The position numbers and the translations under genes are program-made. From Escherichia phage vB_Ec-M-J: a DNA stretch of 64,000 nt. Where the stretch lies: the sequence record OQ718158.1; one strand, given 5' to 3'. The notes below the pieces were generated by a model. It ran no database searches, was not told where the DNA came from, and was given only the letters and a program-made list of their open reading frames with translations. This document shows, in pieces, positions 7,054 through 19,757 of this stretch (position 1 is the first letter of the stretch; the number at the start of each line of letters is the position of its first letter).

Positions 7054-7062
7054 ACATTTAAA

Positions 7063-7100
7063 AGGTTGACTTCGGTCAACCTTTTTTTGTAAATATTGTA
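7063..7100 (+). terminator. terminator hairpin of module type
   Basis: AAAGGTTGAC-TTCG-GTCAACCTTTTTTT. Confidence 0.65.
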
Positions 7101-7386: not shown

Positions 7387-7737
7387 ATGTGTAATGATAT
7401 TGAGAGTACTAAGAAAGTATATACTAATGGTGAAAATACTTTTAGATTCCACAATCTTACTACTAATGAAAGTTTATACTTCTACAACTGTAAAGAGTTC
7501 ATTAAACCTGTGGATAACTCATGTGATATGCCGGAGCCAAAAGCTGCTGTATGTGAGGAACCACAATCCAAAGCTGACAAAGATTCAAAAGATAAGAAAG
7601 ACAAAGCTGACAAATCGGATAAAAAAGAAAACAAAAAGAAAGCTAAAGATGATAAAGATAAAAAGTCCCCTAAGCCAAATCCATTTGAAAAGCCAAAGAA
7701 TGAAAAGCCAAAACCAGACATGACATGTAAAATATAA
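7387..7737 (+). CDS. hypothetical protein with Lys/Asp-rich low-complexity tail
   Basis: track ORF 7363 (GTG) trimmed to first ATG; may be a frameshifted continuation of 7125..7376. Confidence 0.4.
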   Translation: MCNDIESTKKVYTNGENTFRFHNLTTNESLYFYNCKEFIKPVDNSCDMPEPKAAVCEEPQSKADKDSKDKKDKADKSDKKENKKKAKDDKDKKSPKPNPFEKPKNEKPKPDMTCKI

Positions 7738-7742
7738 AAGAA

Positions 7743-7777
7743 AAGGGTTGACTTCGGTCGGCCTTTTTTGCTATAAT
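7743..7777 (+). terminator. fused terminator-promoter module
   Basis: GGGTTGACTTCGGTCGGCC then TTTTTTGCTATAAT. Confidence 0.6.
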
Positions 7778-7803
7778 CATTTCATCAACTACTGGAGGCA
7801 AAC

Positions 7804-8217
7804 ATGTTAAAAGTTATTTTCCGTTCTATCAGTTCATTACTTCTTATGATTAGTTCAGTTTGTTATGCAAATGAAGTATCTGATTTATTTGAGAAGAATT
7901 ACCCAACTGCACAAGAGATGGGTGTTTTAAAATGCAAGCTAACTTCGTACAACATCATCGGCAGTAAACTTGTACTAGAACATGAACGTAGTACACCAAT
8001 CCCTCTAGTAGAAGAAGGTAGTACCTTTAGCTTCAAGTACGGGGTGAACGTAACATCTGGTGTAATGAACAATGTTGATGCAGAGACTGGTTCAACATGG
8101 AGTACTAGCGGTAAAGATGTGTTTCATCGTATGCGTGAAAATGGTAAACTGAAGTACGTATATGAAAGTTCATTCATGAAACGTGTATTCATTATAAAAA
8201 ATTGTGTACCAGCATAA
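7804..8217 (+). CDS. secreted hypothetical protein (signal peptide)
   Basis: N-terminus with hydrophobic core before CYA; GGAGG RBS. Confidence 0.55.
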   Translation: MLKVIFRSISSLLLMISSVCYANEVSDLFEKNYPTAQEMGVLKCKLTSYNIIGSKLVLEHERSTPIPLVEEGSTFSFKYGVNVTSGVMNNVDAETGSTWSTSGKDVFHRMRENGKLKYVYESSFMKRVFIIKNCVPA

Positions 8218-8228
8218 GGAACAACATC

Positions 8229-8504
8229 ATGCGTTCATTTGAAAACTTAATAGGTAAACTTCGCTTACAAGAAATTGAAGCTGATGTGAAGGAATTATCT
8301 GAAACTAAGAGTTACATTCATTTAGATGAACTGTTTATTAAGTACGGTGAGATTGGTTTTAAGTCATTATTTGTGTTTGTCATGAAGGTGCATAGTTTAA
8401 AGTACTTTGATTTGAGTTCAAAAGACGGACAACCAAATCTGTATTACATGTATTATCTTAAGAACATAGACGAAGCTAATACATTATTCTTAGAATATAT
8501 GTAG
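8229..8504 (+). CDS. hypothetical protein
   Basis: track ORF trimmed to ATG after AAGGAACAA. Confidence 0.5.
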   Translation: MRSFENLIGKLRLQEIEADVKELSETKSYIHLDELFIKYGEIGFKSLFVFVMKVHSLKYFDLSSKDGQPNLYYMYYLKNIDEANTLFLEYM

Positions 8505-8852: not shown

Positions 8853-8861
8853 GGATTGATA

Positions 8862-9203
8862 ATGATTTTTTACACTAATGCGTTTGCTTATGCCGTTGCA
8901 TCAATCTACATTGTGTACTTCTTATTTGGTGGAGTACTGTACTTCTTTAAGTACAAAACATTGTTTAACCGAATGTATCCAAATCACCCAATTGTAGTAG
9001 TACTTTTGATGATTTCTGTTGCTCACATCATTGTAGAAACAATAATGGGTATCAGTGCAGTACATTACAGTCTAGGTACTATTGTGATTATTACTATGAT
9101 CATCGCATACATTTTAGTAATGGGTTCTGGTTTATTTGGGAATGTAGCAATGAAATTGTATAATCGAATTAAAACCTTACGTGATAATCTACCGGAGCGT
9201 TGA
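8862..9203 (+). CDS. small multi-pass membrane protein, family A paralog 2
   Basis: track ORF (TTG) trimmed to ATG; tail ends NLPER. Confidence 0.6.
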   Translation: MIFYTNAFAYAVASIYIVYFLFGGVLYFFKYKTLFNRMYPNHPIVVVLLMISVAHIIVETIMGISAVHYSLGTIVIITMIIAYILVMGSGLFGNVAMKLYNRIKTLRDNLPER

Positions 9204-9204
9204 G

Positions 9205-9549
9205 ATGTATAATTTAAATTTAATCTCATATATCATAACAACACTGTTTACTTTCTATACCTTTGTCGGTATACTCCTACTGTACTTTAAATTTTATAAA
9301 CTCTTTGACCGTTTATATCCATCATTGGAACATGAATTCTTATTGGTGATGTACATCTGTTTAACGTGTATGTCTACATTTTTCACTGTATTTGATGGTA
9401 TCATCGGTATTAAAGCTGAAGATCCAAATGGCAGTACACTTGTTGCCTTTATCCTGGTAGGATTCTTCGGTACTTATATCACTTTCATTTCAACATGGTC
9501 TGTGGTTGATTATCTCATTAGATTACGAGATAAAATGCCAAATCGATAG
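9205..9549 (+). CDS. small multi-pass membrane protein, family A paralog 3
   Basis: track ORF (GTG) trimmed to ATG right after upstream stop; tail ends KMPNR. Confidence 0.6.
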   Translation: MYNLNLISYIITTLFTFYTFVGILLLYFKFYKLFDRLYPSLEHEFLLVMYICLTCMSTFFTVFDGIIGIKAEDPNGSTLVAFILVGFFGTYITFISTWSVVDYLIRLRDKMPNR

Positions 9550-9558
9550 GGGATTGCT

Positions 9559-9816
9559 ATGTTTGCATTGCGTAATAAAAATACAAAAGAGATTCTATGT
9601 ATCTCAACAGTATGGGATTGTGCAGGAAGTGAAATGATCCTCGAAGAAGGTTCAGGTGATTGTGTTTATGTTGTTCATGATCGTCGCGAACTGGAATCAT
9701 TACTTGATGAATTTAATGCTGGTGGAAATCCTAAAAGTACTCAATTCCCTGAGATCAGGAATCCAGCACCACCAGGCTCTTATGAAATTCTACAACTGTG
9801 GGAGATGGATAAGTAA
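9559..9816 (+). CDS. hypothetical protein
   Basis: 85-aa track ORF; GGGG RBS. Confidence 0.5.
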   Translation: MFALRNKNTKEILCISTVWDCAGSEMILEEGSGDCVYVVHDRRELESLLDEFNAGGNPKSTQFPEIRNPAPPGSYEILQLWEMDK

Positions 9817-10196
9817 TGCGACAAATGCACAAAGTAACCGAGCTAAACAAGCGTCTGATTAAACAATCAATGTTTGAGGATAAAGAGTCTTACTATAACT
9901 TCAAACGTGCTGTAGAGGCTGCTATCCACATTCAGAAGCTTAAAGATAGTGGATGTATTATTCTCGAAAATGGTTCTGACGTTGTTACTGATGACTTCAG
10001 TGTAGCGTTTGATGTTTCACCTGATGGTTCGCTATCAATGCCACGCTTAGGGACTGGTGACATGACTGTGTGGGTAGGTTTCACTATGGGGAATGTACCA
10101 GGCACGGTGTATGTAGATGATGCTGAGTTGAAAGAAAGCTTTAAAAACTTATCGCATCTTGAACCACAATACGCACATGAAATGAATTTATTTTGA
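9816..10196 (+). CDS. hypothetical protein
   Basis: 126-aa ORF; start overlaps upstream stop (TAATG). Confidence 0.55.
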   Translation: MRQMHKVTELNKRLIKQSMFEDKESYYNFKRAVEAAIHIQKLKDSGCIILENGSDVVTDDFSVAFDVSPDGSLSMPRLGTGDMTVWVGFTMGNVPGTVYVDDAELKESFKNLSHLEPQYAHEMNLF

Positions 10197-10197
10197 G

Positions 10198-10225
10198 TTG
10201 ACAAACTCATTCAGTACTGTATAAT
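10198..10225 (+). promoter_or_regulatory. sigma70-type promoter followed by 5' GC hairpin (10235..10255)
   Basis: TTGACA-N16-TATAAT; hairpin GGGGATGAACTTCTCATCCCC. Confidence 0.6.
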
Positions 10226-10272
10226 GTTTATCAAGGGGATGAACTTCTCATCCCCACAATCGAGGAATTGTC

Positions 10273-10827
10273 ATGATTACTTTTAAGAAAACTGCTAACC
10301 ACATCCATGAGATCTACATTAACGGTCACAAAGCTGGCCTTCTTCGTTTACTCGCCCATCATCCGAATATTACCGTATCTGATAATGAACCTAAAGATTG
10401 GCGTGTATTTTTCTTTGGAAAGTACAGTGATTTTCAAGTATCAAACCTGAAGAACATTCGTTCAGTATGCACGTTAACTGAAATTAAAGAAAAGTTAACC
10501 AAAGCATTGAAAACTAATCCAGATGGTGTTCTTCCACCTGATAACTTTGTAGAGAAAGGATATGCCTTAGCTCATTTCAAAGATGGTACTATTCAATCTA
10601 TCAGTACTGAATATGAATATCAATGGACTGAGTACTTCACTTATGGATCGCGTAATACATTGATGGCTTCACGTAGTAAATTGGAAGAAGTACTGACTCG
10701 TATGAATGAACGCGAGCGTCAGTACTATGACAAACCAGAAATGTGGAGTTCAACTTACATTGACCGTATTGACTATGTTATTATGACTCCAATCTTTGAC
10801 ACTGCTTACTATGATTCTTTGAAATAA
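10273..10827 (+). CDS. hypothetical protein
   Basis: 184-aa ORF behind TTGACA-N16-TATAAT promoter and 5' GC hairpin. Confidence 0.6.
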   Translation: MITFKKTANHIHEIYINGHKAGLLRLLAHHPNITVSDNEPKDWRVFFFGKYSDFQVSNLKNIRSVCTLTEIKEKLTKALKTNPDGVLPPDNFVEKGYALAHFKDGTIQSISTEYEYQWTEYFTYGSRNTLMASRSKLEEVLTRMNERERQYYDKPEMWSSTYIDRIDYVIMTPIFDTAYYDSLK

Positions 10828-10838
10828 GGATAACTTAT

Positions 10839-11015
10839 ATGAAACTACGTACTCGTAATCGACTGATGGATGCACTGTACCATGAACAGCTTTCACTGAA
10901 TGAAGTGAAGCGACAGTTAATGTACACATATCTGTTACCCGCTCGCATTGCAAAACAACGTGCTAAAGAATTGCTGAAAGAAGCAATCGAGTACTGGGAA
11001 TCTGATTCGTACTAA
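10839..11015 (+). CDS. small hypothetical protein (58 aa)
   Basis: hand-found ORF below track threshold; AAGGA RBS. Confidence 0.35.
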   Translation: MKLRTRNRLMDALYHEQLSLNEVKRQLMYTYLLPARIAKQRAKELLKEAIEYWESDSY

Positions 11016-11043
11016 TTGTCACGTTAATTAAGTGAGGCGATAA

Positions 11044-11295
11044 ATGAAAATTTTATTAGTTCTAATACTACTAATTGTTTTACCATTTACGTTAGTATCC
11101 CCTGAACTTGCATGGAATGTGTTTGTGTACTTACTATGTACTATGATAGTAAATGGTATCTTGTTCTTAGTTCTATTCATAAATGGAATAGGACACGGTG
11201 GAGGATGGACCAGTACTGCTGATATTGTACATAAAACCACTATGTCTTTATTTGTAGTGTGGAATTTATTCTGGACTTGGTTTGTGTTCTTCTAA
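11044..11295 (+). CDS. small membrane protein (hypothetical)
   Basis: 83-aa hydrophobic ORF; GAGG RBS. Confidence 0.5.
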   Translation: MKILLVLILLIVLPFTLVSPELAWNVFVYLLCTMIVNGILFLVLFINGIGHGGGWTSTADIVHKTTMSLFVVWNLFWTWFVFF

Positions 11296-11305
11296 TTAAA
11301 AAAAT

Positions 11306-11677
11306 ATGAATATAGATTTGAAAGGTGCAACACGAACTGTCATACTCATTGGGGAATATGCTATCAAGATTCCAACCTTTAAAAGTTGGAAGCTATTCTT
11401 AACAGGGATGATAGCTAACCTCAATGAACGTTCGTGGATGCAGTACTCCAAGCGTAGTGATACTGGTATCTGTCCTACTTTGTGGTCATCATGTACTGGA
11501 CTAGTAACTGTACAGAAACGTTGTAAGCCAGTACAACATAGGGGTTTATTTTGGGTGGAGTTGTGTGCTTTAGCATTGAATTCAGAGTTAAGTACTGACT
11601 TCTTCTATTCAGATGCGAAGCCAGAAAACTTTGGGTATCTGTGTGGTAAGTTGGTTAAACTTGATTATGGAGATTAA
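11306..11677 (+). CDS. mini protein-kinase-like protein (hypothetical)
   Basis: YAIKIP (beta3 Lys-like), DAKPEN (catalytic-loop-like), KLDYGD (DFG-like) in kinase order; weak RBS. Confidence 0.45.
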   Translation: MNIDLKGATRTVILIGEYAIKIPTFKSWKLFLTGMIANLNERSWMQYSKRSDTGICPTLWSSCTGLVTVQKRCKPVQHRGLFWVELCALALNSELSTDFFYSDAKPENFGYLCGKLVKLDYGD

Positions 11678-11678
11678 T

Positions 11679-11948
11679 ATGTACGCATTGTATAATAAAG
11701 AAAAGAAACGATTTGCTAAGGTTGAAATTTCGATTGATACATTTGATATGTTGGAGTACTGTATTGTAACGGACTTATATGCTAACTTGTATTACGTTCT
11801 TGATGACGTATCAGTACTGCAACGATTGCTTGAGAATTCCAAAAGTCAATGCCAGGGCATCCATGATGGTTCATCTTATGAAACACCTGAGTGTTCCTAC
11901 GGCTATCTGGACGGGTATGAGATTGTGAAGTTGGGGATTGTTGAATAA
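11679..11948 (+). CDS. hypothetical protein
   Basis: track ORF trimmed to ATG immediately after upstream stop. Confidence 0.45.
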   Translation: MYALYNKEKKRFAKVEISIDTFDMLEYCIVTDLYANLYYVLDDVSVLQRLLENSKSQCQGIHDGSSYETPECSYGYLDGYEIVKLGIVE

Positions 11949-11960
11949 ATGGATTAAACA

Positions 11961-12374
11961 ATGAAGAAGTGTATCACGTGTAATATTGAAAAAGACATTA
12001 GTGAATTTGGTATAAGAAGTGATACTGGGAAACATAGAAATACATGCAAAGGTTGTAGTAATATTACCAGTAAGAAAACCAGAAATAAAAAAACTGATGT
12101 CAAAAAACTTGAAGAAATCAAAAGAAAAAATAAAGATTTCATGACCAGAGTTAAATCATTTTATGGTTGTAGTGTTTGTATGATGAAGTATCCAGAATGT
12201 TTAGACTTTCACCATCTTGACCCTAATACCAAAGAACATACACCAAGTTCTATGTTCAGTAAAAGTCGAGATGCTATCAAAGATGAAATTCGAAAGTGTA
12301 TGATTCTTTGTTCTAATCACCATCGCATGGTACATTCTGGTAGACTATGTTTGATTGAAAGAAAAAAGGGTTGA
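11961..12374 (+). CDS. HNH endonuclease (homing-endonuclease-like)
   Basis: Cys pairs plus HHLDP...CSNHHRMVH, an HNH-type motif; stop lies inside terminator hairpin. Confidence 0.75.
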   Translation: MKKCITCNIEKDISEFGIRSDTGKHRNTCKGCSNITSKKTRNKKTDVKKLEEIKRKNKDFMTRVKSFYGCSVCMMKYPECLDFHHLDPNTKEHTPSSMFSKSRDAIKDEIRKCMILCSNHHRMVHSGRLCLIERKKG

Positions 12375-12400
12375 CTTCGGTCAGCCCTTTTTGCTATAAT
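12366..12400 (+). terminator. fused terminator-promoter module
   Basis: AAAGGGTTGAC-TTCG-GTCAGCCCTTTTTGCTATAAT; HNH gene stop lies in stem. Confidence 0.65.
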
Positions 12401-12428
12401 CATTTCATCGAAACGAGAGGATGAATAC

Positions 12429-12944
12429 ATGACACGCATTAACTTAGTACACGTTAAAGAACTTGCTGACCAACATCTGATGGCTGAATATCGTGAACTC
12501 CCACGTGTGTTTGGTGCTGTACAAAAACATGTTCAAGCACGTAAGCGAGTCCGTGATTTCAAAATTAACAGTACTTACCTGTTAGGTTCAGGTCATGTAA
12601 CATTCTTCTACAACAAGTTATTGTACTTACAGAAGCGTCATATTGATATTGTTAACGAATGTTTGCGTCGTGGTATGAAGATTCAAAACACTGAAGTAAA
12701 CGACATTAGCGGATTCCCTGCTGAGTTTTGTAATGACTACGTACCATCGGAGTCAGAGATTAAAATGTCTCGTGAGCGTTTGATTGAGAAGCTCCAGATG
12801 AAGCCTACGTGGTATAAATTTACTGACGTTGAACGCCCACAGTACGTTAAAGATATGCAGGACGTAAGTAGTAATATAGAATCTAGTACTGATATGTTAG
12901 ACGAAATTGAAGAACAAATCAAAGATGAAATGAATAATTATTAA
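12429..12944 (+). CDS. denV: endonuclease V, pyrimidine-dimer DNA glycosylase (T4 DenV homolog)
   Basis: N-terminus [31 protein letters not shown] matches T4 DenV as recalled from memory. Confidence 0.85.
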
Positions 12945-12982
12945 AGGTAAGGGTTAACTTCGGTCACACAAAGGAACATAAC

Positions 12983-13177
12983 ATGTTATTAGTATATTCA
13001 AAGCGTTTCTGGATTTCTTTTATTGTACTATCGCTTATCGGCTTCGGTGTGAGTATACTCTTTTCGTGGGATGAATTGGGTACATGGTATTATGAAGTTC
13101 CGTGGTACATGAAGATAGCTCCTTGTTATGCGGCATTGTTCGTGTCATTCCTTATTGTTGTCTTCAGCGAGGATTAG
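12983..13177 (+). CDS. small membrane protein (hypothetical)
   Basis: 64-aa ORF with two hydrophobic segments. Confidence 0.45.
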   Translation: MLLVYSKRFWISFIVLSLIGFGVSILFSWDELGTWYYEVPWYMKIAPCYAALFVSFLIVVFSED

Positions 13178-13283
13178 TTGATGTAGTAGGTGCTACACCA
13201 AAGTATTTGGATATTTGAGATATAAACATTGACACCTGTTCTATCTTTCTGTATTATGTACATCACCAAATGAGGAATACCAC

Positions 13284-13643
13284 ATGGCATCTTTAAGTGA
13301 AATCGCGGAATACAACCCACTAACAATCTCAACAATTCAACGTACAAAAACTTTTTATTTCCGTCCTGCTGATGGATGGAAACGTGGAATGAATGGTGAC
13401 TATCGAGTACTGGAAGATGCACTCGTCGAGCGTATCAACTCTGAACTACATAAGTATGAAGGTGTTAAAGTTGTGCGTTCAACTTCTCGTTATTTTGAGT
13501 ACTACATTGAGTCTTCAACTGTAAATGAAAACTCATCATTCTCGGTGGATAACACTGATATTCTTCGCAATGCAGTTGGTCTGTTATGCAACATTGCTGA
13601 GGAAATGGGATTAACTATTACTACAATGAGTGAATTAGAATGA
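13284..13643 (+). CDS. hypothetical protein
   Basis: 119-aa ORF behind TTGACA-N17-TATTAT promoter; GAGGAA RBS. Confidence 0.55.
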   Translation: MASLSEIAEYNPLTISTIQRTKTFYFRPADGWKRGMNGDYRVLEDALVERINSELHKYEGVKVVRSTSRYFEYYIESSTVNENSSFSVDNTDILRNAVGLLCNIAEEMGLTITTMSELE

Positions 13644-13837
13644 TTAAAACTTTTATTCTTACTATGGTATTTGGGTCTTATGGGTATGGTGGTGGTGTAG
13701 CAACAGTTGAGTATCCATTATACGAAGATTGTAAGGCCGCCGCTGAAGTGTTTGTAAAAACAACCAAAGATTTAGCAACTGTCACTGATGCAAAAGCTTG
13801 GTGTACAACTAAAAATACACCAGAAACTAAGAAATAA
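13640..13837 (+). CDS. small hypothetical protein
   Basis: 65-aa ORF; ATGA overlap with upstream gene. Confidence 0.5.
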   Translation: MIKTFILTMVFGSYGYGGGVATVEYPLYEDCKAAAEVFVKTTKDLATVTDAKAWCTTKNTPETKK

Positions 13838-13843
13838 AAAATA

Positions 13844-13879
13844 AAGGGTTGACTTCGGTCAGCCCTTTTTGCTATAATT
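13844..13879 (+). terminator. fused terminator-promoter module
   Basis: same 36-nt module as at 12366 and 15256. Confidence 0.65.
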
Positions 13880-13904
13880 ATTTCATCAACTGATGAGGTA
13901 ACAA

Positions 13905-14141
13905 ATGAAACTATCTTTTATACGATTAGCTGAATTTTTCGGTACTAATGTAATTACTCTACAACAAATCGCAGATAATACATCATTAACTACTCAAGAA
14001 GTACTTGACTTAGATGTAATTCAGTGCGATAATACTTCCATCGATTACAAAGAAGGTCTTGTCGAAAAAGATAAGATTCAAGCTAAGATTAATGGTGCTG
14101 GACGGGTTCAGTACTGGAAAGGAGTTTTAAGTAATGTATAA
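13905..14141 (+). CDS. hypothetical protein
   Basis: 78-aa ORF after terminator/promoter module; GAGG RBS. Confidence 0.5.
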   Translation: MKLSFIRLAEFFGTNVITLQQIADNTSLTTQEVLDLDVIQCDNTSIDYKEGLVEKDKIQAKINGAGRVQYWKGVLSNV

Positions 14142-15249
14142 ATTTTATTTTAATGACGATGGTGAAAAAGTTTATTTCCACGAAGAACTTGGTATGCGTT
14201 TTGAATGGATGCACGCGGAAGACATTGAACAATTTTCTTGTGGAAAAACTGCCAAAGACCACGTTGATGACATAGAGGCATCATTCTATGATTTAGGAAT
14301 AACTGATATCACAATTTTGGGTATTGGTGTGTCAAACGCAGCTGAATTTGGTATTTCTGGAAATTCACATGCTAAAATCGTCTTAAAAAAAGACGATATC
14401 ATCTATAATAATTATAAAATAACTGCTTTTAAAACAAAGCTTAATAAGTTGTCAGAAGGTGATGGTATTAAGTTATCTTTTTCATACACAAATGATAATT
14501 ATTACTATTACGTAACCAAACTTGCAAAATTACAATCTAAAAACTGTCATATACATCCAAATGAAATAATTGATAATGGAATTTCATCTAAAATAAAATT
14601 CACATATAGTGATGGTGTAACTGTACCTAGAAGAATAAATGATATATTGACAAAAACTAAAATTAATGTGAGTTATTTTGTAGATGATGATATTAGAGAT
14701 GGGGTAGCTTTAAATCGATGTAGAGAATTGAAATATCATTTTCAGTCTATTTACAAGCATGAGAATGGACGATACTTTGTAAAATATGAGTGTACTAGAG
14801 GTCATCAATGTGATCAAGACTATCATGCATTTACTGGTACAGCGAAGCAATCATGTGGTGTGTGTTCTAAACTTAAGACACACTCATATGGTCATAATGA
14901 TACCATGAAATTTTTAAGGAATTTGCATATTACAATAACGGAAAAAACTTTCAATGATTTGAAAGATAAAATGAAACTTCCATATGATTTTTATGTGAAA
15001 GATTTAAATGCGTTGATAGAATATGACGGTAGTGATCATTTTAAAAATAAGTCATCTCGAAACAATTTTATTGATCGTCAGAAGAAAGATAAAATGAAAA
15101 CGGAGTACGCAATCAACAATGGATATAACTTCCTACGAATTGCATATTATGAAGGTCATCTTGAAGTACTGGAATCTTTCCTGAAACTCATCGAAGAGAA
15201 CCCAGGAAAGCAAATCGTACAGATTTATGGTGATGTGAAAATCATCTAA
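14134..15249 (+). CDS. putative nuclease (zinc-ribbon plus PD-(D/E)xK-like C-terminal domain)
   Basis: C-terminus IEYDGSDHF...DRQKKDKMK...GYNFLRIAY resembles restriction-endonuclease-like fold; Cys/His cluster. Confidence 0.5.
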   Translation: MYKFYFNDDGEKVYFHEELGMRFEWMHAEDIEQFSCGKTAKDHVDDIEASFYDLGITDITILGIGVSNAAEFGISGNSHAKIVLKKDDIIYNNYKITAFKTKLNKLSEGDGIKLSFSYTNDNYYYYVTKLAKLQSKNCHIHPNEIIDNGISSKIKFTYSDGVTVPRRINDILTKTKINVSYFVDDDIRDGVALNRCRELKYHFQSIYKHENGRYFVKYECTRGHQCDQDYHAFTGTAKQSCGVCSKLKTHSYGHNDTMKFLRNLHITITEKTFNDLKDKMKLPYDFYVKDLNALIEYDGSDHFKNKSSRNNFIDRQKKDKMKTEYAINNGYNFLRIAYYEGHLEVLESFLKLIEENPGKQIVQIYGDVKII

Positions 15250-15255
15250 AACAAA

Positions 15256-15290
15256 AAGGGTTGACTTCGGTCAGCCCTTTTTGCTATAAT
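15256..15290 (+). terminator. fused terminator-promoter module
   Basis: same module; GCTATAATCATTTCATCAACTGATGAGG continues to RBS. Confidence 0.65.
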
Positions 15291-15318
15291 CATTTCATCA
15301 ACTGATGAGGATAACGAA

Positions 15319-16089
15319 ATGACCAGAGAAGCACGTAGCATTCAAATCCAGAAAAACTTCAACTCCATGATGGTTGCTCTTGAGTGTTTGCTCGACGATA
15401 ACAGTACTGTAAAAAGTATGGTTGTCAGCGGTGCACCTGGTGTTGGTAAGACTTACACCCTGTCACAACGCCTCCAGAAAGCTCATGACGCAGCAGAATG
15501 GAACGTAGCTACTATCAGTGGTAAGATGACTACTCTTGCTCTGTACGAAGTTCTGTACAAGAATCGTCACAGCACTAACGTATTAGTACTGGATGATATG
15601 GACAGCATCTTTGATTCAGAAGACGGTATGAACCTGCTCAAAGCAGTACTGGACAGCGGTAAACGTACTGTGTCTTACATGACTAGCTCTAAGTACTTAA
15701 CTACCAACGGTATCCCTAACAGCTTTGATTTTAACGGTCGTATCGTATTCATTACTAACAAAGATTTAGCACTGAATGCTAAAGCTAAAACCAAAATGTC
15801 TGCTCACTATGCTGCTCTTATGTCTCGCTCTGTGTATGTTGACTTACAGATCCAGACTAAAAGCGATATCATGATTCACATTGAAAACGTAATGAACAAG
15901 ACCAACATCCTGTCAACTAAAGGTGTTAATAGTAATGGTAGCAAAGCAATCCTGAATTGGATGCTGAAACATGAAGATGCACTTCGTGCCCCTTCACTGC
16001 GTATGCCTCTGTTGATTTCAGCAGTATACAACAACAACCCGTATGATTGGGAAGAGCAGTGCGAAAACTTGTTCCTTGAGAAAATTTAA
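15319..16089 (+). CDS. P-loop NTPase (ATPase)
   Basis: Walker A GAPGVGKT and Walker B-like VLVLDDMD. Confidence 0.65.
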   Translation: MTREARSIQIQKNFNSMMVALECLLDDNSTVKSMVVSGAPGVGKTYTLSQRLQKAHDAAEWNVATISGKMTTLALYEVLYKNRHSTNVLVLDDMDSIFDSEDGMNLLKAVLDSGKRTVSYMTSSKYLTTNGIPNSFDFNGRIVFITNKDLALNAKAKTKMSAHYAALMSRSVYVDLQIQTKSDIMIHIENVMNKTNILSTKGVNSNGSKAILNWMLKHEDALRAPSLRMPLLISAVYNNNPYDWEEQCENLFLEKI

Positions 16090-16156
16090 TTACATGTATT
16101 GACAGCACTACACTATGGTAGTACTATAACTTAATATTCACCACCGGAGATACGAT

Positions 16157-16495
16157 ATGCTTGAGTTTTTTAATTCAGATACAATGCTTAGTATTACTTT
16201 GATTTATCTGTTTGGTTTTTTCTTTTATCATGCACTAGTTGTAGTACTATGGTATTTTAAAAAGAAAATTGTTTTCAAACTGTATCCTGATGGAAATATT
16301 TCACTACTTCTTTTCACTATTATCCAAGGTATGTTTGCAATTGTTGGTCTTATCGCACACTTAATTTATTGTGCTAATCCACAGTTGAACTCAATATCAC
16401 AATATATTGTTTTCCTTGGATTACTAATTTGGGTGCTGATATACTTGTTTAATCTCATCATTAATGGTAGAGCAAAAATTCGTGGGGACTTCTAA
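16157..16495 (+). CDS. small multi-pass membrane protein, family B paralog 1
   Basis: 112 aa, hydrophobic; first of 7 tandem paralogs with coupled starts. Confidence 0.6.
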   Translation: MLEFFNSDTMLSITLIYLFGFFFYHALVVVLWYFKKKIVFKLYPDGNISLLLFTIIQGMFAIVGLIAHLIYCANPQLNSISQYIVFLGLLIWVLIYLFNLIINGRAKIRGDF

Positions 16496-16842
16496 TGTTT
16501 GAATCTTATCTTGAGTTTTTAAAGAGTAGTTCTGTTGCACATTCAATTGCAGGGATTATTCTAACAGGTTATGTAACATTTTGGGTAGTTATGTTTCTAG
16601 GATGGTATTTTAAACGACAATTCTATAAGCGTAATGGTGAAGATTTTATGAATTCTTTCATTAATCAATCGTTGTTTGCATCAACATTGATAGCATGTAT
16701 TGTAGCAACACTCACAGGAAAGGTACTGCCAGCATTCTCCGCAGTTTACGGTACATTGGGTATGATATGTGTAGTTTTTTACTTGACCATTAAACTTTGT
16801 TGTGTTATGATTGAACTTCGAAACAAGATACCGGAGGAATGA
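16495..16842 (+). CDS. small multi-pass membrane protein, family B paralog 2
   Basis: tail ELRNKIPEE like family A; TAATG overlap. Confidence 0.6.
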   Translation: MFESYLEFLKSSSVAHSIAGIILTGYVTFWVVMFLGWYFKRQFYKRNGEDFMNSFINQSLFASTLIACIVATLTGKVLPAFSAVYGTLGMICVVFYLTIKLCCVMIELRNKIPEE

Positions 16843-17177
16843 TGGAATATTTTTTACACTTACTGCCGTGGTATATGAAAGTTAGTACTATGTACTATAT
16901 TCTTAGTGCTGGATTCTACTTTCTGATGTGGTTCTTCAAACGACCAATTTCAGTATTCATCTCTGATAACATGCTGCAATTAAAATTACACGCATGGTTT
17001 TTTATGGCGATGTTTATGCCTATTATTCACTACTCAATGATTAGTAGAGGTTTACGTTCTAATGGTGAACCAATTATATTAGTATTCTATTGGGGTTCAA
17101 CTATTGCATATGTAAGTTTGTTGTTGATCCCAGCCGTTCATAAATTGCGTTCTAAAGTTCCTGATGCGAGGTACTAA
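16839..17177 (+). CDS. small multi-pass membrane protein, family B paralog 3
   Basis: tail HKLRSKVPDARY; ATGA overlap. Confidence 0.6.
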   Translation: MMEYFLHLLPWYMKVSTMYYILSAGFYFLMWFFKRPISVFISDNMLQLKLHAWFFMAMFMPIIHYSMISRGLRSNGEPIILVFYWGSTIAYVSLLLIPAVHKLRSKVPDARY

Positions 17178-17491
17178 TGGATATCGTAACATTGATTTAC
17201 ACGTTGTATTCATTCTATTTTATTATGTGTTGGGTTGGATTTTTATTTGTACTGAAAATGTTTGATTATGTTGAAAAACAGATAAAAGAATTTTGTATTC
17301 CTTTTATTGGGTCAACCATAATTAGTATTACTTGTTTGTATTATTTGGTATGTGATCCACCTGTTAATACAGCAATGATTGACTTCATGTTATTACCAAC
17401 AACTGTTATTTTTTTATGTAGTCTGATGCCACCGATTAGTCGTGGGCTAACCGAATTTAGACGCAATCAAAAGCGTAAACGAGGGATGTGA
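17177..17491 (+). CDS. small multi-pass membrane protein, family B paralog 4
   Basis: 104-aa hydrophobic ORF; TAATG overlap. Confidence 0.55.
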   Translation: MDIVTLIYTLYSFYFIMCWVGFLFVLKMFDYVEKQIKEFCIPFIGSTIISITCLYYLVCDPPVNTAMIDFMLLPTTVIFLCSLMPPISRGLTEFRRNQKRKRGM

Positions 17492-17859
17492 TGGAAATTG
17501 CACTTATTATATTAACTGCTATGTTGTTTATTAGTACAATTGTTATTATTGGCAAGTTCTTCTGTGTATCCTTCTTGGAAACCGTATACGATGAAATTGC
17601 TGATGATTATGAATTACATGCGGGATTTTTTACTACGTATTGGATTAGTTTATTACTACTTATCACTGTATGGATTTTACATATATTCAAATGGGGTATG
17701 GTAGATGGTGATCCAGTACTGGCAATTATCTGTGTAGTGTTTGGTCTACTCGGTGGTGCTGTCCATAATCTGATGGTAATTTGGCAAACCGTACAATATG
17801 TATTAGTTCCACATTTTCAGAGAATGCACCAAAGCATCAAATACCGCAAACGAGGATAA
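17491..17859 (+). CDS. small multi-pass membrane protein, family B paralog 5
   Basis: track ORF 17488 (GTG) trimmed to ATG overlapping upstream stop. Confidence 0.55.
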   Translation: MEIALIILTAMLFISTIVIIGKFFCVSFLETVYDEIADDYELHAGFFTTYWISLLLLITVWILHIFKWGMVDGDPVLAIICVVFGLLGGAVHNLMVIWQTVQYVLVPHFQRMHQSIKYRKRG

Positions 17860-17860
17860 C

Positions 17861-18223
17861 ATGAATAATATTGAATTATCTTTTATTGGTCAATTAATGG
17901 TAATGGCGTATACATTTATCTTCTCACTGAATGCATTCGTGTGCATTGGGAAGTACTTCCATAAGCGACCATTATCAAATATATATGATGTAATACAAAG
18001 GAGATATAGTCCAGCATATACTGTGTTGAGTACAGCATTCAATTTTGGTTTTATTCTAATGCTGGTTGCATTATTAACATCGAGTTCGAATTTTATAACA
18101 TTTGGTATTATGGTATGTTCACTAACACTGTGTGTGGTTATTCTCTGTGCATCAGTTGAGTTGATGGCGTGGATGTATAATAAGATTTCCGAAATCCATG
18201 AGCGTTTAGGTAAGAGGAACTAA
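17861..18223 (+). CDS. small multi-pass membrane protein, family B paralog 6
   Basis: 120-aa hydrophobic ORF; GAGGA RBS. Confidence 0.55.
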   Translation: MNNIELSFIGQLMVMAYTFIFSLNAFVCIGKYFHKRPLSNIYDVIQRRYSPAYTVLSTAFNFGFILMLVALLTSSSNFITFGIMVCSLTLCVVILCASVELMAWMYNKISEIHERLGKRN

Positions 18224-18224
18224 A

Positions 18225-18596
18225 ATGAGTTATCGTGAAATATTTTCGATCATTACTATTATTGTGTTTAGTTTAGGTTCTTTGATTTGGTTATTGTATT
18301 ACTTCTGTGTAACCCCAGTATATAATATGCTAAATTCAGTACGCTCTGATGTTGGTATTGTTTCTTTTATTATCTTCATGGCATATTATATGCTAAGTAT
18401 CACAGGTTTGGTTTTGGTTGTTATCTTTGACCTTGGACCGAATCAAGATGGTATGGAGGTGTGGGAATTGATAACGATGTTTGCATGTATGATACCTGCA
18501 TTTGGTGTATGTGCTGGTGTATTTTATGGGTTATGTAAAGGTGTGAACTACTTAAAAAATATCCACAATACTATTCGTAAAAAACGTATGTTATAA
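18225..18596 (+). CDS. small multi-pass membrane protein, family B paralog 7
   Basis: 123-aa hydrophobic ORF; followed by bidirectional hairpin. Confidence 0.55.
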   Translation: MSYREIFSIITIIVFSLGSLIWLLYYFCVTPVYNMLNSVRSDVGIVSFIIFMAYYMLSITGLVLVVIFDLGPNQDGMEVWELITMFACMIPAFGVCAGVFYGLCKGVNYLKNIHNTIRKKRML

Positions 18597-18603
18597 TAAA
18601 AAA

Positions 18604-18626
18604 TCCAGTACTATAATAGTACTGGA
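18604..18626. terminator. bidirectional hairpin between convergent genes
   Basis: TCCAGTACTATAATAGTACTGGA in A/T-rich context. Confidence 0.55.
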
Positions 18627-18632
18627 TTAATT

Positions 18633-19757
18633 TTAATTATCTAAGCCACCAATTACACTGAACTGTGTGGTAACGTCTGAACTATTATCTATGTAAGTTC
18701 TTCGACCAACATAATATAGTTGTCCTTTTGCTTGAATAAAAGTTACGGTCCCTGTATTGAATGTTATAATATCATTGTATGTAATGTCAGGTGGTAGTGC
18801 TGCTGATAATGCAGTAACAGCACTTAATGCAGCACTAGCACTACCATTTATACCAGCAGCAATACTACCAGTACCATAGAACTTATTATCTTTACCAATG
18901 AATACGTTGGCTGATGCTTGTGTAGCTGATGTTATTGCCTTACCAATTTGGAATGCGGTTCCTATGGTGTATGGTGTGCTCCTGGCTGCGTCTATGCTTT
19001 GTGTATATCCATCCCCTAGCTGACCATTAACTTTGTCACCACATGAGTATAGAGTACCATTGAGGCTGTATATGATCCCACGGTTAGAGAAGCTAACAGC
19101 TTCTGCATTAGTCCATACTGGTGCGGTGTATGAGTTTACACGACTAGCGGTAGTTCCTAGACCTAGTATACCATATGTGTTATCACCACATCCAAACCAT
19201 TGTCCAGAACTGTTTTGATAGAACACTGAACGTTCTGTTGATTCCATGCGTACAGCATCCACAGCACCACTTTTAACGAACGAAGTGGATGAGGATGTAG
19301 TACCAGTACCCAATGCACCATAAGTGTTTGTACCAATCGCATAGATTGATCCTAGTGGTGTCATAACACGTATGCAGTTATATCCCAATTGAACTTTACA
19401 TTCAAATAGGTTGTCCCATATTTCAGGAACAGCAGAAAATAAATTTGTAATTTCGAACCATGATGTTGTCGAACCAGTTAATCCTATACTGCTTTTGTTT
19501 CCTAAAATGAAAACAGTTTTGTCCTTCTTAATTATCCATGATGATAGAAAGCCTATCTCACAGCTATGAACATTTGATTCGATTTGGGTAATATAATACT
19601 TAACGGTGTTATCACCCATAAATGCCGCAGCACCAGATGCAAAAAGGTTTCCAGTTTGTTTATTTAAAATGTAGTTATTGTTTCCATATACACTAACATC
19701 ATAAGAACTTTCTTGTTTTTCGTTCCCATAATCAAATAACAATACGAAAGGTAACAT
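18633..19757 (-). CDS. beta-propeller protein, RCC1-like repeats, divergent leader MLPFVLLFDYGN
   Basis: 374 aa; G/S/T/N-rich; motifs YGALGTG, YGILGLG, NGQLGDG. Confidence 0.75.
   Translation of the reverse strand: MLPFVLLFDYGNEKQESSYDVSVYGNNNYILNKQTGNLFASGAAAFMGDNTVKYYITQIESNVHSCEIGFLSSWIIKKDKTVFILGNKSSIGLTGSTTSWFEITNLFSAVPEIWDNLFECKVQLGYNCIRVMTPLGSIYAIGTNTYGALGTGTTSSSTSFVKSGAVDAVRMESTERSVFYQNSSGQWFGCGDNTYGILGLGTTASRVNSYTAPVWTNAEAVSFSNRGIIYSLNGTLYSCGDKVNGQLGDGYTQSIDAARSTPYTIGTAFQIGKAITSATQASANVFIGKDNKFYGTGSIAAGINGSASAALSAVTALSAALPPDITYNDIITFNTGTVTFIQAKGQLYYVGRRTYIDNSSDVTTQFSVIGGLDN

Follow-up and report, generated by a model that had tools for sequence, protein, structure and literature searches.

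Conserved resident genes and optional homing-endonuclease-type genes in a probable hyperplastic early-gene region of an Asteriusvirus jumbo coliphage

Described exchange systems and the phage region

The PeSL concept of T4-like phages (PMC2839356, PMC4122927) offers one close described parallel to the region studied here. Like the PeSLs, the cassettes reported below pair a terminator with a sigma-70 promoter, as predicted from their sequence; they recur in the intergenic gaps of a hyperplastic early region, and sequences that have been inserted, deleted or replaced end at them. Unlike them, they lie in a Rak2-like jumbo phage of the genus Asteriusvirus, outside the Straboviridae, their sequence is group-specific, and both their function and their part in recombination are inferred. 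A second parallel is provided by the T5orf172 homing endonucleases with CapR, DUF723 and DUF4379 zinc-finger arrays, which Barth et al. 2023 (PMC10448857) place at recombination boundaries. In addition, the Rak2-like phage CBB carries DenV and HNH homing genes in its early region (PMC5259590).

We analysed a stretch of 64,000 nucleotides (the window) from Escherichia phage vB_Ec-M-J (OQ718158.1), a jumbo coliphage that belongs to the 121Q/PBECO4 group of Asteriusvirus. Four open reading frames on the plus strand, at 11961-12374 (137 aa), 12429-12944 (171 aa), 14134-15249 (371 aa) and 15319-16089 (256 aa), lie exactly where a sequence-only reading had placed them. That reading was silent on four further small ORFs (12983-14141) and on three repeated intergenic cassettes dividing the genes. 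Our comparison map comprises 12 genomes, namely the window phage, 121Q, G17, PBECO4, Ecwhy_1, BF17, EC.P1, fEgEco12, ph0011, JP4, WPEC3 and CMSTMSU, the last of which carries many frameshifts. With a probability of about 0.8, we read the locus as a hyperplastic early-gene region, divided by cassettes, in which two conserved residents (denV and an NrdC.10-type ATPase gene) are accompanied by optional cargo that includes two homing-endonuclease-type genes. Since no intron, other Rfam family or tRNA was found in the region, both nuclease genes are free-standing.

The residents: denV and an NrdC.10-type ATPase gene

The denV gene (12429..12944, plus strand) encodes a pyrimidine-dimer DNA glycosylase/AP lyase. 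Residues 1-131 of its product align with T4 endonuclease V (PDB 2END, E 7.9e-54), the catalytic residues T2, R3, R22, E23 and R26 are kept in that alignment, and the protein matches the profiles of Pfam Pyr_excise (PF03013, E 9e-15) and PHROG 1183 (E 8.5e-59). The DenV homology claimed from the letters is therefore genuine, and the alignment marks the protein as a true orthologue of T4 endonuclease V. It differs from the T4 enzyme in an extra acidic C-terminal tail of 40 residues (132-171), which T4 lacks and which is itself variable among relatives. All 12 genomes carry denV, with products of 144-171 aa. The genomic surroundings of the window denV are unrelated to those of denV in T4.

The second resident encodes an AAA+ ATPase (15319..16089, plus strand) that matches PHROG 1250 with an E value of 7e-103, aligning to positions 77-326. 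Walker A (GAPGVGKT) and Walker B (VLVLDD) motifs are present, in agreement with what had been read from the sequence, and G38, G41, G43, K44, D92, D93, N147, R170 and R228 are invariant across 53 homologues. The predicted structure (pLDDT 93.9) is a generic AAA+ fold resembling ORC/Cdc6, RuvB, RFC and Hda. The protein shares 38.5% identity with T4 NrdC.10 over 93% of its length (E 9e-47), and Foldseek aligned it with nrdC.10 of Aeromonas phage 25 at a TM score of 0.94 (E 8.6e-27). Compared with T4 NrdC.10, a conserved hypothetical protein of 325 aa, the 256-aa window ATPase is about 70 residues shorter N-terminally. ATPases of this type occur at 1309 places in 1308 phage records, that is, as a single copy, and all compared relatives retain the gene with or without an adjoining nuclease. 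We thus regard it as a conserved resident, orthologous to NrdC.10, and not as cargo. Relatives that are otherwise 97-100% identical carry one or other of two ATPase alleles, which share only about 59% identity. In T4, too, a homing gene lies near nrdC.10, the order there being mobD - nrdC.11 - nrdC.10.

Optional nuclease genes and their neighbours

Slot 1 holds the HNH endonuclease gene (11961..12374, plus strand), an optional gene whose 137-aa product matches the PHROG 2255 'HNH endonuclease' family (E 9e-32) and has an intact HNH motif; its Pfam HNH_2 score of 13.5 bits lies under the 21-bit cut-off. The gene is present in six of the 12 genomes. Three (121Q, G17 and PBECO4) have an empty slot, two (Ecwhy_1 and BF17) carry an unrelated 89-aa ORF instead, and CMSTMSU has only an unmatched 72-aa ORF. 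Its absence from some close relatives fits the earlier suggestion of a mobile homing endonuclease gene. Copies at least 80% identical were found in 16 phage records, and relatives of roughly 40-48% identity occur in Felixounavirus, GAP32 and Klebsiella phages. The insertion starts directly after the stop codon of the upstream gene and ends in a cassette, the TGA stop of the HNH gene falling within cassette copy 1. When flanks were compared between genomes with and without the gene, neither co-conversion nor a target site left a clear signature. Judged by its sequence and distribution, this is probably a selfish, homing-endonuclease-type gene.

Slot 2 (12983..13837, plus strand) is likewise variable and contains three small plus-strand ORFs in the window phage: one of 64 aa with two predicted TM helices (12983-13177), one of 119 aa matching PHROG 32140 (13284-13643), and one of 65 aa found only in the window phage among the 12 genomes (13640-13837). 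JP4 has a 203-aa ORF and Ecwhy_1 a 245-aa ORF at this position, and BF17 is empty. Further downstream lies a 78-aa ORF (13905..14141, plus strand; PHROG 34150), confined to this phage group and present at 80-99% identity in 28 phage records, 27 of which have it in one place only. It always stands directly 5' of the slot-3 nuclease, with an 8-nt overlap, and is 92-97% identical at the nucleotide level across relatives although the downstream nuclease differs.

The nuclease in slot 3 is the 371-aa protein (14134..15249, plus strand), which from its predicted fold and family alignment is probably a second homing-type endonuclease, and probably a selfish one, a possibility that the sequence-only reading did not consider. 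Its structure, predicted with moderate confidence (pLDDT 80.8, pTM 0.43), comprises an N-terminal domain (~1-110), a zinc-ribbon/beta-hairpin part (~150-245) and a Vsr-like, EDxHD-type PD-(D/E)xK domain (~255-371), so the PD-(D/E)xK-like C-terminus proposed earlier holds. The C-terminal fold resembles I-Bth0305I and, most closely, the mismatch-repair nickase Vsr. No Pfam family was matched, and sequence-only PDB searches did not reach Vsr or I-Bth0305I (3R3P) at significance; the family assignment therefore rests on the predicted structure. Acidic and His residues are invariant in the family alignment, even in very divergent members, a weak profile match to the AbaSI Vsr-like domain aligns the D...ExD...H block, and the spacing of D285 and H302 (17 residues) equals that of D196 and H213 in I-Bth0305I (PMC3239194). 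In all, 241 phage records contain the nuclease domain, for which homing or VSR endonuclease is a frequent annotation.

In contrast to I-Bth0305I (PDB 3R3P) and the phage Hef-type EDxHD enzymes, the 371-aa gene lies outside any intron or intein, and its N-terminal part is a novel domain plus zinc ribbon rather than NUMOD/HTH. Its relatives bear CapR, DUF723 and DUF4379 zinc fingers, the same DNA-binding families, in shuffled domain arrangements, as the enzymes of Barth et al. 2023, and the gene likewise sits at a boundary of genetic exchange, adjoining the gene-bounded swap of ATPase alleles. The catalytic domain, however, is Vsr-like, unlike that of the T5orf172 enzymes; Vsr is nowhere mentioned in PMC10448857.

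The slot is occupied differently among relatives. JP4 and G17 carry 372-aa alleles 59-60% identical to the 371-aa protein; 121Q, Ecwhy_1, PBECO4 and WPEC3 have unrelated nucleases of PHROG 681, which could not be shown to be T5orf172 or GIY-YIG enzymes. BF17 has two proteins (471 and 365 aa) without a family match, and CMSTMSU only fragmentary ORFs. In EC.P1, fEgEco12 and ph0011 the slot is empty.

This distribution bears on a possible two-gene module for defence or anti-defence (Gabija, OLD or AbiEii-like) made up of the ATPase and the 371-aa nuclease. The two genes adjoin on the same strand, a P-loop ATPase with a nuclease is a frequent defence architecture, and in PADLOC the ATPase had weak partial matches, confined to the Walker-A region, to PDC-S73 (E 9e-4) and GajB (E 3e-3). 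However, a terminator/promoter cassette stands between the genes, the ATPase follows denV directly where slot 3 is empty and adjoins the unrelated nucleases in the four PHROG 681 genomes, and its distant homologues have no neighbouring nuclease. PADLOC returned no match for the nuclease and no defence system for the four proteins. Because the ATPase is a single-copy gene of about 1300 records, kept with or without an adjoining nuclease, the two are not a conserved pair; on synteny grounds the proposed module appears largely refuted, and we consider it the least probable reading.

Scarcely more credible is a coordinated repair cluster, in which DenV would incise UV dimers, the Vsr-like and HNH proteins would act on mismatches or lesions, and the repair motor would be the ATPase. 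DenV is genuinely a repair enzyme, the closest fold to the 371-aa protein is that of a mismatch-repair nickase, and the ATPase fold is akin to RuvB, clamp loaders and ORC. Yet conservation across relatives is limited to DenV and the ATPase, both nucleases being optional, so the 'DNA-repair and nuclease cluster' seen from the sequence does not stand as a functional unit. The 371-aa protein has long N-terminal domains of DNA-binding type, and its family is annotated and distributed like homing endonucleases. A Vsr-type repair function normally goes with a cytosine methyltransferase, but the ORFs scanned (10273-16089) matched no methyltransferase family, and none of the PADLOC models, among which restriction-modification types would be included, matched the four proteins. 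On the T4 map, moreover, denV and nrdC.10 are unlinked.

Repeated cassettes and a model of gene exchange

The genes are divided by an exact 33-mer, GGGTTGACTTCGGTCAGCCCTTTTTGCTATAAT, present on the plus strand at 12368..12400 (copy 1), 13846..13878 (copy 2) and 15258..15290 (copy 3, the predicted promoter of the ATPase gene). Three exact copies and one with two mismatches were found, with zero expected by chance. Copy 1 contains a -35 element (TTGACT), a GC-rich UUCG hairpin followed by T5, which is terminator-like, and an extended -10, TGCTATAAT. A promoter scan of the cassette scored 11/12; the hairpin, folded in copy 3 (identical to copy 1), gave -27.8 kcal/mol (z -4.85), and the cassettes carry a terminator annotation in G17. 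From its consensus match, we infer that this PeSL-like cassette is a composite terminator and sigma-70 promoter with the hairpin in the -35/-10 spacer. A degenerate half-cassette, GGGTTAACTTCGGTCAC (12951..12967, plus strand), without the T-run and -10 box, lies just past the denV stop. EC.P1, ph0011 and fEgEco12 have a complete cassette at this site with the ATPase gene straight after, the product expected of recombination between the half-cassette and cassette 3.

Insertion and deletion ends in relatives coincide with cassettes. Cassette-mediated recombination alone could explain presence and absence without nuclease-driven homing. The nuclease genes might then be passive cargo moved only in this way, perhaps inactive or domesticated against co-infecting relatives or satellites. 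The surroundings of the HNH gene, which show no co-conversion signature, are compatible with this, as is the gain and loss of non-nuclease ORFs in the nuclease slot; in ph0011, this region also has inserted genes that encode a DUF262/GmrSD_N protein and an N6-adenine methyltransferase. Homing-endonuclease domains are also co-opted in phage-satellite conflicts (PMC10448857). We nevertheless judge passive carriage unlikely, if less so than the two preceding alternatives. The invariant catalytic residues of the 371-aa family and the intact HNH motif argue for maintained nuclease activity. Furthermore, at least two nuclease families, and three highly divergent forms, recurrently fill the same slot, a pattern that random shuffling would produce less typically than site-targeted invasion.

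For the preferred reading, a hyperplastic region with homing-type cargo, we propose the following mechanism. Each cassette would stop the upstream transcript and start the next one, so that a gene landing between two cassettes or just before one would be expressed early; the HNH gene would have inserted between the stop codon of its upstream gene and the terminator. As has been suggested for T4 PeSLs, cassette copies would recombine with one another by homology, and modules would be gained, lost and swapped in this way. In the modular 371-aa enzyme, the N-terminal and zinc-ribbon part may bind DNA and the Vsr-like C-terminus act as the nuclease. The nucleases would cut nuclease-free alleles of co-infecting relatives, and recombinational repair would copy the nuclease genes in; by homing, these selfish genes would thus persist in the population and carry flanking markers along. 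All the components belong to known kinds, and the locus would represent an ordinary gene-swapping hotspot, neither a repair nor a defence machine.

Gene order and cassettes in a mosaic region

The region that the sequence-only reading described as a repair cluster, possibly with a defence role, proved to be a shuffling hotspot in which two conserved genes are accompanied by two probably selfish nuclease genes. All four ORFs lie on the + strand at exactly the positions claimed for them, encoding an HNH protein of 137 aa (11961-12374), a DenV protein of 171 aa (12429-12944), a nuclease of 371 aa (14134-15249) and an ATPase of 256 aa (15319-16089), with four small ORFs between denV and the 371-aa gene. 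Matches to the DNA of 9000-19000 were found in 70 phage records, each covering less than 80% of the segment. As coverage reaches 80% in none of them, the region is mosaic; the phage itself is an Asteriusvirus-type jumbo coliphage of the 121Q/PBECO4 group. A comparative map was then constructed from the window and 11 fetched relatives, anchored by flanking genes. In all 12 genomes the order is the same: upstream gene, slot 1, a cassette, denV, slot 2, a cassette, slot 3, a cassette and the ATPase gene.

The slots differ in content. Slot 1, before denV, carries the HNH gene in the window, WPEC3, EC.P1, ph0011, JP4 and fEgEco12 and an unrelated 89-aa ORF in Ecwhy_1 and BF17, and it is empty in 121Q, G17 and PBECO4. 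The proposed check on whether close relatives lack the HNH gene thus gave presence in 6 of 12 genomes, an empty site in 3 and another ORF in 2; the twelfth, CMSTMSU, a record full of frameshifts, has only a 72-aa ORF without a match. Slot 3 holds the 371-aa gene in the window, 372-aa alleles of 59-60% identity in JP4 and G17, and unrelated PHROG 681 nucleases of 487, 447, 379 and 516 aa in 121Q, Ecwhy_1, PBECO4 and WPEC3, respectively. BF17 has a 471-aa and a 365-aa protein there, both without a family match, the frameshift-rich CMSTMSU record has fragmentary ORFs only, and the slot is empty in EC.P1, fEgEco12 and ph0011. In slot 2 (12983-13837), the 65-aa ORF at 13640-13837 has a signal-peptide-like start and a 4-nt overlap with the stop of the ORF before it; none of the 11 relatives compared has an equivalent ORF. 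In ph0011, four extra genes lie between the HNH gene and denV (L005 4941-8274); their products include a putative N6-adenine methyltransferase and a 401-aa protein with a DUF262/GmrSD_N domain (Pfam E 1e-17). This hotspot thus also takes up cargo of a defence- or anti-defence-like kind.

Exact copies of the 33-mer GGGTTGACTTCGGTCAGCCCTTTTTGCTATAAT are found at 12368, 13846 and 15258 and a copy with 2 mismatches at 7745, whereas 0 occurrences are expected by chance; a terminator-only relative lies at ~7060-7085. Each cassette comprises a -35 element (TTGACT), an 18-nt spacer and an extended -10 element (TGCTATAAT). The spacer forms a GC-rich UUCG hairpin followed by T5 (-27.8 kcal/mol, z -4.85), and the same hairpins are annotated as terminators in G17. 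This design is shared with the PeSLs of T4-like phages, in which a sigma-70 promoter and a stem-loop terminator are combined and repeated in the hyperplastic region, and which have been proposed to mediate modular shuffling there (PMC2839356, PMC4122927). Across the 12 genomes compared, the ends of indels and replacements coincide with cassettes. The window has a degenerate half-cassette after denV (12951-12967); in EC.P1, ph0011 and fEgEco12 the cassette at this place is complete and leads directly into the ATPase gene. Around the 371-aa gene, homology to relatives ends at ~14140-14215 and restarts at ~15112-15258. The positions of the indel ends are consistent with a PeSL-like shuffling role of the cassettes.

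The conserved genes: denV and an nrdC.10 orthologue

The claimed DenV homology is genuine, with matches in Pfam (Pyr_excise PF03013, E 9e-15, 55.2 bits against a cut-off of 23), in PHROG (PHROG 1183, E 8.5e-59) and to T4 endonuclease V (PDB 2END, E 7.9e-54, residues 1-131 aligned to 1-131), and with the catalytic residues kept. Thr2, Arg3, Arg22, Glu23 and Arg26 are identical to T4 in the 2END alignment (MTRINL..., ...AEYRELPR...). In the T4 enzyme, the N-terminal amine of Thr2 and Glu23 are catalytic and the three arginines bind DNA. The protein is a predicted pyrimidine-dimer glycosylase/AP-lyase. In contrast to T4 endonuclease V, it bears a 40-residue acidic C-terminal extension (residues 132-171, window 12822-12944); DenV proteins of the relatives have 171, 167 or 144/145 aa, so the tail itself is variable.

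The ATPase assignment was borne out by Walker A (GAPGVGKT) and Walker B (VLVLDD) motifs, and the family invariants are G38, G41, G43, K44, D92, D93, N147 (the sensor-1 Asn), R170 and R228. The model, with a pLDDT of 93.9, shows an AAA+ fold of an alpha/beta domain and a helical lid. Its nearest solved relatives are all generic (ORC/Cdc6, RuvB, RFC and Hda), and a Foldseek search of viral models (BFVD) matched it to nrdC.10 of Aeromonas phage 25 with a TM of 0.94 and an E of 8.6e-27. Searching with tblastn returned T4 nrdC.10 (AF158101.6) at 38.5% identity (E 9e-47), among 1309 places in 1308 phage records. The window ATPase is the orthologue of T4 NrdC.10, a conserved T4-type ORF for which the literature gives just an AAA match (PMC1524935). 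Many homologues in the phage records from this search are annotated 'thioredoxin'; since the NrdC.10 protein is an AAA+ ATPase, this label is most likely an error inherited from the gene name.

Two alleles of the ATPase gene were found among the relatives (7627-8400 in WPEC3, L001; 8914-9687 in ph0011, L005; ~7448-8217 in a further relative, L004), with either 96-100% or ~55-59% amino acid identity to the window protein, in a setting of neighbouring genes that are 97-100% identical. Between the window and WPEC3, nucleotide identity falls from the cassette onwards and recovers to 98-100% precisely where the ATPase gene has its 3' end. The divergence being bounded in this way, the whole gene has been replaced, as described in general for boundaries occupied by nucleases (PMC10448857). 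No correlation between ATPase allele and slot-3 occupant was seen among the few genomes of the 12-genome map.

Could the ATPase and the nuclease form a defence or anti-defence module, as suggested from the sequence? Synteny argues against it: the ATPase gene stays in place, and the nuclease gene can be missing or exchanged for another. A terminator/promoter cassette separates the two genes, and distant ATPase homologues have small early ORFs around them and lack a nuclease neighbour. PADLOC-DB returned no matches for the 371-aa nuclease, the HNH protein or DenV, and for the ATPase only weak, Walker-A-limited matches to two unrelated systems. Taken together, these results led us to reject the pair hypothesis. 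In T4 (L016 1379-4244), the order is mobD - nrdC.11 - nrdC.10, so that a single gene separates nrdC.10 from the HNH homing gene mobD on its upstream side. Some T4-like records likewise annotate a homing or DNA endonuclease next to the nrdC.10 homologue, and the proximity of nuclease genes to this ATPase may be a recurring pattern.

Downstream of the ATPase gene, seven ORFs of 104-123 aa stand in tandem at 16157-18596, with two further ORFs upstream at 8856-9549; as all are hydrophobic with a basic tail at the end, they resemble a set of small, paralogous membrane proteins. Their number varies among relatives, with an additional copy after the ATPase gene in 121Q, JP4, G17 and ph0011. A perfect 12-bp palindromic hairpin (18602-18628) marks the switch from + to - strand genes, with a change in the sign of GC skew nearby. 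In relatives, the first - strand gene (18633-19757, 374 aa) carries the annotation 'regulator of chromosome condensation' (RCC1-like) and is one of several such paralogues.

The optional nuclease genes

A scan of the window for introns, other Rfam RNA families and tRNAs found none; with no intron or other RNA family present, both nuclease genes are free-standing. The 137-aa HNH protein matches PHROG 2255 best (E 9.3e-32) and four more HNH PHROGs. Pfam HNH_2 scored 13.5 bits, under its 21-bit cut-off, and a PDB sequence search gave no match. By inspection, the protein has a His...Asn...His motif with flanking Cys pairs (GCSVC...DFHHLDP...LCSNHHRMVH) and an additional CxxC...CxxC at its N-terminus. 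The insertion junction is clean, with the upstream stop codon on one side and the cassette on the other: the gene starts 13 nt past that stop codon, and its own TGA falls in the cassette's TTGAC, as does that of the alternative 89-aa ORF. At 80% identity or more the gene occurs in 16 records, and relatives of ~40-48% identity are scattered among Felixounavirus, GAP32 and Klebsiella phages. A search of the variable flank columns in HNH-plus, HNH-minus and other-ORF genomes for a target-site or co-conversion signature gave no consistent pattern; the SNPs fail to separate HNH-plus from HNH-minus genomes and point to no target site.

The 371-aa protein is 100% identical to a deposited protein of vB_Ec-M-J and matches PHROG 559 and PHROG 9084 ('homing endonuclease'); Pfam, NCBIfam and PADLOC searches returned no match. 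Sequence-only PDB searches, with the full protein and then with a C-terminal family profile, yielded a weak AbaSI match and spurious matches to repeat proteins (DARPins, designed beta-propellers), and being unproductive, they made a fold search necessary. On the structural model, the C-terminal domain is predicted to have a Vsr-type nuclease fold. The 'PD-(D/E)xK-like C-terminus' noted earlier was therefore right and is more precisely a Vsr-like homing-type nuclease domain; the deposited copy is labelled 'HNH endonuclease', despite this predicted fold.

The C-terminal ~110 residues are highly conserved across 24 database relatives. D285, E296, D298, G299, H302, D319, K322, R335 and E340 are invariant in the family alignment and E270 nearly so, and the spacing of 17 from D285 to H302 equals the Asp-to-His spacing of I-Bth0305I. 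In that enzyme, the EDxHD family is defined by E170, D196, H213, D222 and a further conserved acidic residue (PMC3239194), and the invariant residues here appear to fit this pattern. The N-terminal parts are very variable and CxxC-rich. Whereas a NUMOD/HTH N-terminus would be expected of EDxHD/Vsr-like homing endonucleases, the N-terminal parts in the 371-aa relatives match the zinc-finger families DUF4379, CapR and DUF723, and a search of the N-terminal region of the 371-aa protein found no NUMOD or HTH match. This absence concerns architecture, not the catalytic family. Likewise, residence in a group I intron or intein would be expected of EDxHD/Vsr-like enzymes, whereas the 371-aa gene stands alone between cassettes; yet free-standing phage Hef-type genes also count as members of the family (PMC3239194). 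The Vsr-like domain was found in 241 records from many phage groups, only 14 of them Escherichia-phage records. We hold a Vsr-type role in mismatch repair to be unlikely because the gene is optional and of homing-type architecture.

Nuclease turnover at slot 3 and its meaning

Just upstream of the slot-3 nuclease, a 78-aa ORF (13905-14141, +) recurs in 28 records at 80-99% identity, and the features annotated under or beside its matches are homing, HNH, 'endonuclease' or UvrC-like. Directly downstream of it, Vsr-like domain matches were found in EJP2, TH47, SHEFM2K, JNE01 and BAU.Micro_ELP-22. In PBECO4, the 379-aa enzyme (L009 4294-5433) is chimeric: similarity to the window 371-aa protein over the N-terminal 90-120 residues is followed by a middle repeat like the DUF723-like repeats of WPEC3 and then by a C-terminal domain that shares 61% identity with its counterpart in 121Q gp221. 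Domain shuffling of this kind has been described for T5orf172 homing enzymes (PMC10448857). A G-D-G-x-T-E-T motif had suggested that the 121Q, Ecwhy_1, WPEC3 and BF17 nucleases are themselves T5orf172/GIY-YIG enzymes; this assignment was dropped, as Pfam did not support it even with the threshold relaxed to E 10, so their label stays 'PHROG 681 endonuclease', and the sole such hint for the alternative nucleases is a 'UvrC subunit' annotation in phAPEC6. In WPEC3 (L001 ~7480-7560), the cassette is immediately preceded by a remnant coding for the C-terminal tail of a nuclease of the 371-aa type (...NPGKQIVQIY.EVQII). Its position downstream of the unrelated 516-aa nuclease suggests that an earlier occupant was replaced.

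One could go further and see slot 3 as a dedicated nuclease-exchange site, its enzymes as weapons between co-infecting Asteriusviruses and the swap of ATPase alleles as their footprint. On such a scheme, the 78-aa ORF and the N-terminal domain shared by the 371-aa protein and the PBECO4 chimera would tie the nuclease to the locus, while catalytic domains of the Vsr-like and PHROG 681 types would be swapped, and the gene-bounded change to a 59% NrdC.10 allele would reflect nuclease-driven repair or escape from cleavage. We consider this extended scenario improbable.

The main reading, which we consider probable, is more modest. As selfish genes in a shuffling hotspot, both nucleases would cut nuclease-free alleles and spread through recombinational repair; recombination between cassette copies would add or remove modules, and the cassettes would end and restart early transcription.

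Much of this has precedents. DenV, HNH homing genes and RpoD-type early promoters were already described in the Rak2-like phage CBB (PMC5259590), and Vsr-like homing endonucleases, free-standing phage Hef-type genes included, were known as well (PMC3239194). PeSLs and nucleases at exchange boundaries are both familiar, and what is new is membership and detail. The main value lies in correction and tidying, in that an 'HNH endonuclease' becomes a Vsr-like (EDxHD-type) enzyme and a 'thioredoxin' becomes an AAA+ orthologue of NrdC.10. Three wider points are of modest interest: a predicted Vsr-type catalytic domain is joined to zinc-finger scaffolds so far linked to T5orf172 homing enzymes, PeSL-like cassettes bound exchangeable modules in Asteriusvirus, whose jumbo phages do not belong to the T4 family, and a single locus, slot 3, accommodates many alternative nucleases. 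As a natural system, the locus would lend itself well to studies of homing-gene turnover and of the swapping of catalytic domains.
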